10,137 nt of DNA from IMG/VR virus record IMGVR_UViG_2529292716_000008. One strand, 5' to 3'. The position numbers were made by a program, and so were the translations under genes. The notes under the pieces are model-generated. The model saw only the letters and a program-made list of their open reading frames with translations. It was not told the DNA's origin and made no database searches. Position 1 is the first letter of the stretch. Each line of letters opens with the position of its first letter. This DNA comes from a virus. Taxonomy: Duplodnaviria > Heunggongvirae > Uroviricota > Caudoviricetes. Below are positions 6,406 through 7,070 of the stretch, piece after piece.

Positions 6406-6651
6406 GTGACAACGAAGCACGCCAAAAAACCACAATCTCACGCCCTTGATTTGACAGAACACTGGCTGAGGGTGGCGATAAAAATCATCGACCGCAACGC
6501 CGGGGAAGGATACGCGAAAGCACATCCCGAACTGATAAGCGCATTCATGACCACGACGGCGGCAAACTTTGCCACGCTGACAGAACGGGAGATTGCCGAA
6601 GCGGAACAGGTGACAACCATCAACGTTAAAACCGGAGAGCAGACAGCATGA
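6406..6651 (+). CDS. Hypothetical protein (81 aa), translationally coupled to ssb
   Basis: GTG start at 6406 preceded by GAGGT (6394-6398). Its stop overlaps the ssb start (ATGA at 6648-6651). Protein MTTKHAKKPQSHALDLTEHWLRVAIKIIDRNAGEGYAKAHPELISAFMTTTAANFATLTEREIAEAEQ... No recognised motif. Confidence 0.5.
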   Translation: MTTKHAKKPQSHALDLTEHWLRVAIKIIDRNAGEGYAKAHPELISAFMTTTAANFATLTEREIAEAEQVTTINVKTGEQTA

Positions 6652-7070
6652 CAGCACAGATAGCGGCTTACGGGCGGCTGGTGGCTGACCCGCAGTTAAA
6701 GACCACCAGCAAGGGTACGCAAATGACGATGGCGAGTATGGCGGTTCCCCTGCCGTGCAGCCAGGCAGATGACGGAACGGCGACGATATGGTTATCCGTC
6801 CTGGCGTTTGGCAGACAGGCTGACGCACTGGCAAAGCACCAGAAAGGCGAGCTGGTGAGCGTGGCGGGTAACATGCAGGTAAGCCAGTGGACAGGCCAGA
6901 ACGGAGAAACGCGGCAGGGCTGGCAGGTTATCGCAGACAGTGTAATCAGTGCCAGAACGGCGCGACCGGGCGGTAAAAAAGGCCAACAGGGGCAGGCCAC
7001 TGATGCACTGAACAGGGCCAAACAACAGGCGGGGAATGATGATCCGTACGGGGATAACATACCGTTTTAA
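6648..7070 (+). CDS. ssb: Single-stranded DNA-binding protein (divergent SSB)
   Basis: 140 aa. The N-terminal OB-fold region aligns by eye with E. coli SSB (YGRLVADPQLK... ; WLSVLAFGRQADALAKHQKGELVSVAGNMQVSQWTGQNGETRQGWQVIADSV). Gly/Gln-rich linker, and an acidic C-terminal tip DDPYGDNIPF resembling the canonical DDDIPF protein-interaction tail. SD GGAGAG at 6634-6639. Confidence 0.8.
   Translation: MTAQIAAYGRLVADPQLKTTSKGTQMTMASMAVPLPCSQADDGTATIWLSVLAFGRQADALAKHQKGELVSVAGNMQVSQWTGQNGETRQGWQVIADSVISARTARPGGKKGQQGQATDALNRAKQQAGNDDPYGDNIPF

Follow-up and report, generated by a model that had tools for sequence, protein, structure and literature searches.

The closest described relatives of the locus studied here are the phage satellites of the Gram-negative PICI (GN-PICI) type. 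In the part of PMC6092414 drawn on here, PICI origins of replication are sets of iterons that flank an AT-rich region and lie immediately 3′ of the pri/initiator gene. Passages of PMC10111431 list SSB together with Primase and DUF5906 as GN-PICI replication genes beside mapped origins and also describe a helper-embedded PICI configuration. An island-encoded SSB is thus already known, both from RefSeq annotation and from the portion of the GN-PICI literature consulted (PMC10111431). A small ORF between the origin and ssb, on the other hand, finds no mention in the text passages of PMC6092414 and PMC10111431 that were searched.

We analyzed a 10,137-nt stretch of viral DNA (Caudoviricetes; IMG/VR record IMGVR_UViG_2529292716_000008), hereafter the window, in which an 81-codon ORF of uncharacterized product (ORF81) and an ssb gene overlap. 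The gene order in the window is int, IS1, alpA, DUF4222, a D5-type primase, an iteron origin, ORF81, ssb, a terminator, and a broken protease/capsid gene. By this order and by its counterparts in Escherichia coli the window is identified as a GN-PICI-type phage satellite, bearing out an earlier reading made from the sequence alone, which had called the ssb gene satellite encoded. The features that characterize a PICI, i.e., int, alpA, the primase, and the iteron array (6112 to 6355), were all found on the + strand as one rightward unit of ~10 kb.

The tyrosine integrase gene int (positions 1 to 1239, +) was recognized from the ORF listing and profile scans. The IS1 copy (1543 to 2312) has terminal inverted repeats at 1543 to 1566 and 2289 to 2312, with insA at 1599 to 1874 and insB at 1793 to 2296; it sits between the island integrase gene and alpA, an insertion that may have uncoupled int from the remainder of the island. 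The AlpA gene (2339 to 2635, +; profile scans) is followed by a leftward YlcI/YnfO-like small gene and by two small ORFs ahead of the primase, one of them DUF4222 (4004 to 4303). The D5-type primase/helicase (4285 to 6102, +) matches the Pfam models D5_N, DUF5906, and Pox_D5 as well as phrog_864, DNA primase (E = 7.9e-188). These profile matches identify it as the replication initiator of the island; its RefSeq name in the E. coli islands is “DNA primase family protein.” An AT-rich gap of 300 nt separates it from ORF81.

The right-hand part of the window carries the late genes. ORF75 (7506 to 7733; phrog_4934, function unknown) precedes the late/capsid genes and has a counterpart at 7306 to 7500 of the homologous island L005; by eye, the likeness lies in an N-terminal segment of the form “...SATV.ID...,” and ORF75 may be a small DNA-binding protein that regulates the late zone. 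A ClpP-protease/major-capsid fusion gene follows in two frames (7730 to 8875 and 8839 to 9597), split by a 13-nt deletion at about position 8793, and only the start of a further gene, ORF93, is present at the end of the window. Since the same ClpP-like prohead protease/major capsid fusion gene is unbroken (1,890 nt) in L001 and L002, two E. coli islands, the gene in this island copy is probably a capsid pseudogene. Together, the IS1 insertion and the 13-nt capsid deletion suggest that the copy may be partly decayed.

L001 and L002, homologous islands of about 11 kb with chromosomal or prophage flanks, have the same gene order and the same annotations as the window. In E. coli chromosomes the order given by PGAP is DNA primase family protein, hypothetical protein, SSB, and ClpP-like prohead protease/major capsid fusion. 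In E. coli O157:H7 (NZ_CP066759.1; L002, 3170 to 13057), the near-identical island lies in the large-terminase gene of a lambdoid prophage, with the halves of the terminase gene annotated on either side, an arrangement that fits the helper-embedded configuration as it is described in the passages of PMC10111431. A megablast comparison of the window DNA with sequenced phages gave no match, and Rfam detected zero RNA families across the window.

Between the primase and ORF81, positions 6112 to 6355 contain an AT-rich array of GGTGAACAG iterons in both orientations. With up to 1 mismatch, the window has 16 occurrences of GGTGAACAG, a count reached in 0 of 200 shuffles, where 2.1 would be expected, and 10 of the 16 matches fall within 6132 to 6354, again in both orientations. 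The GC content of the iteron stretch is 29 to 36%, and the region also contains repeat families D1 to D3 and inverted repeats I1 to I19. Because its position immediately 3′ of the primase and its iteron/AT-rich organization match those of the origins in PMC6092414, the array is very likely the replication origin of the island. ORF81-ssb is the first transcription unit past it.

ORF81 (6406 to 6651, +; 81 aa) starts with GTG and is preceded by a GAGG 8 nt upstream; in most relatives the start codon at this position is ATG. The ssb gene (6648 to 7070, +; 140 aa) starts with an ATG at 6648 to 6650 that overlaps the TGA of ORF81 at 6649 to 6651, so that start and stop share the sequence ATGA (6648 to 6651, +), as had been read from the sequence at the outset. 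All 78 paired IMG/VR loci retain this overlap, with junctions such as GCATGACA, TCATGACA, and TTATGACG, consistent with translational coupling of the two genes. A promoter scan of the + strand upstream of ORF81 gave nothing convincing.

The unit ends at an intrinsic-terminator-like hairpin with a T-run (7084 to 7108, +; GAAGCCGGA-GCAA-TCCGGCTTTTTT; −16.3 kcal/mol, z = −3.25). A simple terminator scan of the window missed this hairpin, presumably because pairing in its stem can continue into the T-run, so that the T residues left over are too few for the scan rule. The same 23-nt terminator element is found directly 3′ of ORF81 in two ssb-less islands, L005 and L140. That ORF81 and ssb are real genes and not chance ORFs is indicated by the phrog_1231 match, the 160 close homologs, and the 642 sequence clusters of ORF81, and by the PF00436 and TIGR00621 scores of the SSB, all detailed below. 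Antisense ORFs across 6379 to 7060 were considered as genes and rejected, protein-level conservation following the + strand frames.

The ssb product scores 59.4 bits against PF00436 (cutoff, 26; residues 5 to 99) and 60.5 bits against TIGR00621 (cutoff, 53.95), and also matches phrog_44. Twenty-five solved SSB chains were matched, the best being that of Thermotoga maritima (1z9f; E = 3e-10), a protein of the 141-aa class. On these profile and structure matches the 140-aa protein qualifies as a bona fide bacterial-type OB-fold SSB, in agreement with the SSB assignment first made from the sequence. It is also divergent, as had been claimed, with 25% identity to E. coli SSB over 100 aa. Three of the four aromatic residues that stack on single-stranded DNA (ssDNA) in E. 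coli SSB (W40, W54, F60, and W88) are retained. In an alignment of 100 family members plus E. coli SSB, W48, F54, and W81 correspond to W54, F60, and W88, and each is kept in 100 of 101 family rows, while W40 is replaced by Cys37 in a poorly alignable loop. In addition, H55, a residue important for the stability of the E. coli SSB tetramer, is replaced by Leu49. With these two substitutions, the oligomeric state and the binding mode could differ from those of E. coli SSB.

The linker between the OB domain (5 to 99) and the tip (roughly the last 10 residues) is basic, Gln rich, and ~30 aa long, indeed short compared with the linker of E. coli SSB, which spans about 56 aa and is Gly/Pro/Gln rich. 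The protein ends in ...GNDDPYGDNIPF, its last residues being DDPYGDNIPF. The acidic C terminus and the DNIPF tip, in place of the canonical DDDIPF, are thus present as originally noted, but the suggestion that this altered tail might retarget the SSB or abolish the recruitment of its partners did not hold up. Across 120 homologs the last twelve residues follow the consensus DDP[YF]-G-D-x-IPF, in which free variation is confined to x at −4 (N, G, D, E, or S). The variants comprise GDNIPF (55 homologs), GDGIPF (19), GDDIPF (13), EDEIPF (8), and SDDIPF (6). A C-terminal IPF is present in 108 of the 120; six end in LPF, VPF, APF, ISF, or LSF, and six are truncated or partial. Conserved are D(−5), the I, P, and F of the tip, and an aromatic residue at −7, all positions in common with MDFDDDIPF of E. 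coli. In SSB-partner complexes it is the terminal Pro-Phe with its carboxylate that provides the indispensable contacts, affinity being further raised electrostatically by the acidic residues. Conservation of the tip everywhere except at −4 therefore has the pattern of purifying selection for partner binding, and DNIPF looks like normal family variation at a single free position of a tail conserved for that function.

The gene is widespread. Five IMG/VR contigs encode the island SSB at 100% identity, representatives of clusters 97% identical to it carry the RefSeq name “single-stranded DNA-binding protein,” and ssb-like DNA was found in 1,821 of 5,426 complete E. coli genomes (about a third). 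The nearest SSB among about 50,000 sequenced phages is ~31% identical, which by sequence comparison marks an island-specific SSB lineage.

ORF81 matches phrog_1231, a known family of unknown function, with E = 4.7e-49, its residues 2 to 80 aligning with positions 4 to 82 of the 83 in the profile. Scans against Pfam, NCBIfam, and PADLOC yielded zero matches, in keeping with its initial description as an unknown protein. The 160 close homologs come from Escherichia (E. albertii among them), Shigella, and Citrobacter. Among 24 of them the core (residues 13 to 75) is nearly invariant and the basic N terminus and the last five to six residues are variable. When 1.84 billion cluster representatives were searched with a profile of the ORF81 family, the result was 642 clusters (representatives at 50% identity, E ≤ 1e-3), most of them of 70 to 140 aa and with the common motif TA..Y...AI..ID..FGEGYAK.HPELIAAFM.TAA.DF. 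Ten distant relatives also match the core of the phrog_1231 profile. A tblastn search of sequenced phages gave no ORF81 match, and a scan of genome contigs gave two loci only, one in Shigella flexneri and one in a Methylovulum MAG.

An AlphaFold model of ORF81 built from the diverse alignment reached a pLDDT of 82, with values above 90 for residues 11 to 60 and helices at 9 to 32 and 41 to 75. The protein is confidently predicted to be a two-helix hairpin with the invariant motif at the turn. An earlier AF2 model from the 24 close homologs was poor (pLDDT, 59), and Foldseek found no match to it in the PDB. A profile search of PDB sequences with ORF81 recovered a designed helical repeat protein alone (E = 0.016), and comparisons with solved and viral structures, by fold and by sequence, matched only generic helical hairpins or uncharacterized phage proteins. 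These matches are uninformative, and the function of ORF81 therefore cannot be read from its structure.

The linkage of ORF81 and ssb in enterobacterial islands is tight. In IMG/VR loci anchored on ssb, ORF81 lies directly upstream in 78 of 80; in those anchored on ORF81 with a flank of sufficient length, ssb lies directly downstream in 70 of 74. The pair is kept behind three unrelated initiators, namely, a D5 primase, a RepA helicase, and a DUF927 primase. Searches of complete E. coli genomes identified 2,636 places with the joint query, 2,184 with the ORF81 query, and 2,372 with the ssb query, from which inclusion-exclusion gives roughly 1,900 paired places, about 260 with ORF81 only, and about 450 with ssb only, counts that are approximate and depend on DNA-level detection. 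About 88% of the ORF81 places and about 81% of the ssb places are thus paired. The basic, variable N-terminal 15 aa of ORF81 come in variants that track the initiator type in E. coli islands, a pattern that could reflect either specificity or a mere recombination boundary.

The pairing is nonetheless not obligate, as judged from the single-gene islands. Three islands (L003, L035, and L044) have ssb only, encoding SSBs 89 to 98% identical, with breakpoints at 7001 to 7033 in L003 and at about 3953 to 4001 in L035 and L044; all keep no more of ORF81 than its last 25 to 50 nt, including the ribosome-binding site of ssb. Conversely, in the two ORF81-only islands, L005 (7164 to 7216) and L140 (4229 to 4259), ORF81, present up to about window position 6634, is joined directly to the terminator, present from window position 7086 onward. 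Such precise presence/absence breakpoints indicate that ssb is an indel cassette between the 3′ end of ORF81 and the terminator. In yet another island, L004, an SSB 67% identical is overlapped from upstream by an unrelated 100-aa ORF.

Farther afield, we sampled 37 distant phrog_1231 loci encoding 29 distinct proteins. None of the 30 downstream genes scanned (at 23 of the 37 loci) encodes an SSB according to a local SSB HMM, and Pfam scans agree. A primase/helicase gene lies within about 400 nt upstream at 12 of the 37, of the type PrimPol plus DUF5906, PrimPol plus VapE, DUF927 plus Toprim plus Zn ribbon, or DUF5906 alone; one locus adjoins a UDG-DNA-polymerase-A (PolA) gene, and about two thirds have no recognizable adjoining primase. 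On these neighborhoods, the association of phrog_1231 with replication is a tendency, not a rule. The Methylovulum relative of ORF81 lies in a phage-like region with a primase and without ssb. The same contig carries nearby a large terminase gene (1421 to 4405, −; 994 aa) that, from its translated sequence only, appears to contain an inserted LAGLIDADG/intein-like segment.

Several nonenterobacterial elements have a PrimPol/VapE or DUF5906 primase, then a phrog_1231 protein, and then an antiterminator-Q-like protein. Three distinct, primase-linked IMG/VR loci (L188, L196, and L198) have the antiterminator-Q-like gene after the phrog_1231 member, which suggests that the replication module gives way to late-gene control at the phrog_1231 gene. 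In the neighborhoods sampled, a link to ssb is confined to those members of the family that lie on enterobacterial islands. The proposal in the sequence-only reading that ORF81 and ssb form a functional pair is thus only partly supported: their linkage stands for the near relatives and fails for the single-gene islands and the distant loci.

Overall, the reading that we consider probable is that the locus is the distal end of a GN-PICI replication module, where a conventional SSB is encoded together with an accessory protein, ORF81, that is not a dedicated SSB subunit. Activation of the island by a helper phage would start rightward transcription through the primase/helicase gene, the iteron origin, and ORF81-ssb, to stop at the hairpin at 7084 to 7108, and the ATGA overlap would couple translation of ssb to that of ORF81. 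As the island initiator opens the origin, the OB-fold SSB would coat the single strands exposed, and its conserved acidic ...D-x-IPF tip would bind those replisome and repair partners that the host's own SSB engages. The satellite would in this way gain a private supply of SSB during its replication burst. ORF81 would be an accessory factor of the replication module, associated either with the initiator/origin or with a conserved component of the host replisome, and its fusion with ssb into a single translational unit would be an arrangement specific to the lineage of enterobacterial PICIs. Because the turn motif is common to islands with unrelated initiators, ORF81 would be expected to contact a common target and not a specific initiator, perhaps part of the host replisome, or else ssDNA/SSB generally. 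A broader version of this idea, which we regard as speculative, is that phrog_1231 is an unrecognized, widely distributed accessory factor for replication in satellites and phages whose primase/helicase-origin modules are self-contained, that its invariant turn motif GEGYAK-HPELI-AFM docks onto a conserved host replisome component or ssDNA-SSB, and that enterobacterial PICIs have welded it, through translational coupling, to a private SSB as a two-protein “origin-opening kit.”

Three other explanations need to be weighed against this one. The preserved ATGA overlap at every paired locus, the high paired share in complete E. coli genomes, and the persistence of the pair while the initiator upstream is swapped among three types would all be expected if ORF81 were a dedicated partner of the island SSB, for example by inhibiting this variant-tailed SSB, by serving as its chaperone, or by altering or redirecting it as an adaptor, with the overlap ensuring matched synthesis; the tight linkage in E. 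coli is indeed compatible with a direct ORF81-SSB interaction. Yet each gene persists singly, ssb in L003, L035, and L044 and ORF81 in L005 and L140, the SSB of L004 is overlapped by an unrelated ORF, SSB genes are missing from the 30 downstream neighbors scanned in the distant family members, and the SSB tail is canonical and conserved, without degeneration. For the enterobacterial subgroup a dedicated partnership is a model weakened by the natural single-gene variants and in our estimation rather unlikely; an accessory role in the replication module is more likely for ORF81 than a specific partnership with SSB. Slightly less improbable, although still doubtful, is a role for ORF81 as a small protein that regulates the copy number or transcription of the island, comparable to Cnr of P4, acting through contact with the initiator or, by means of its basic N terminus, with origin DNA. 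The position of ORF81 immediately 3′ of the iteron origin, the covariation of its N-terminal 15 aa with initiator type, and the frequent location of distant members directly behind primase/helicase genes fit such a regulator, but its most conserved part, the GEGYAK-HPELI-AFM hairpin turn, is shared by islands with unrelated initiators, pointing to a common target, and the protein bears no likeness to any DNA-binding fold.

The least probable of these explanations, and in our view a distinctly improbable one, is that the island SSB serves mainly in conflict, as a decoy or competitor that sequesters host SSB-interacting proteins, by interference with helper replication, or as a trigger of or shield against SSB-sensing defenses. 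Phage SSBs are documented in the literature, PMC13402713 included, as triggers of Retron-Eco8 and of other systems such as DARNA, Hna, and DRT10, passages of PMC6092414 describe interference of PICIs with their helpers, and the SSB belongs to an island-specific lineage with its nearest phage counterpart ~31% identical. However, the Retron-Eco8 trigger examined in those passages of PMC13402713 was the SSB of T7, and host SSB failed to activate the system. Moreover, no defense or antidefense model in PADLOC matches ORF81 or the SSB, ssb lies in the replication module by the origin and outside the interference/accessory zone, and the sequence gives no sign that normal SSB function has been lost. 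The notion that the SSB might help to evade or trigger host defenses accordingly gained no support.

For specialists the locus holds little surprise, an SSB in the replication module of E. coli/Shigella PICIs being already annotated by RefSeq in about a third of complete E. coli genomes, and the outcomes are mostly negative or clarifying: DNIPF is not a retargeted tail, and ORF81 belongs to a large, unnamed helical-hairpin family that is a recurrent neighbor of primase/helicase genes. Only one thread is modestly novel, namely, that phrog_1231, which ORF81 matches end to end and which lacks a Pfam or NCBIfam model and a solved structure, may be a family of replication-accessory proteins. For work on the function of this family, the islands provide, in a host amenable to genetics, naturally occurring variants with ORF81 alone, with ssb alone, and with both genes.

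Like the bacterial homotetrameric SSBs (E. coli; T. maritima 1z9f), the island protein has a single N-terminal OB fold. With E. coli SSB in particular it shares residues corresponding to W54, F60, and W88, a linker that is flexible, and an acidic tip that closes with IPF and carries Asp at −5 as well as an aromatic residue at −7. It differs from E. coli SSB in its tip, GDNIPF versus DDDIPF, and in the replacements H55 to Leu and W40 to Cys, and also in being satellite encoded, with no close relative in sequenced phages. With the GN-PICIs and helper-embedded PICIs, as these are presented in the passages of PMC6092414 and PMC10111431 drawn on, the locus shares the gene order int, alpA, pri, origin, SSB, and a late (capsid) gene, together with unidirectional transcription, a size of about 10 kb, and an origin of iterons in an AT-rich stretch 3′ of pri; this copy is set apart by its IS1 insertion and the 13-nt deletion in the capsid fusion gene.
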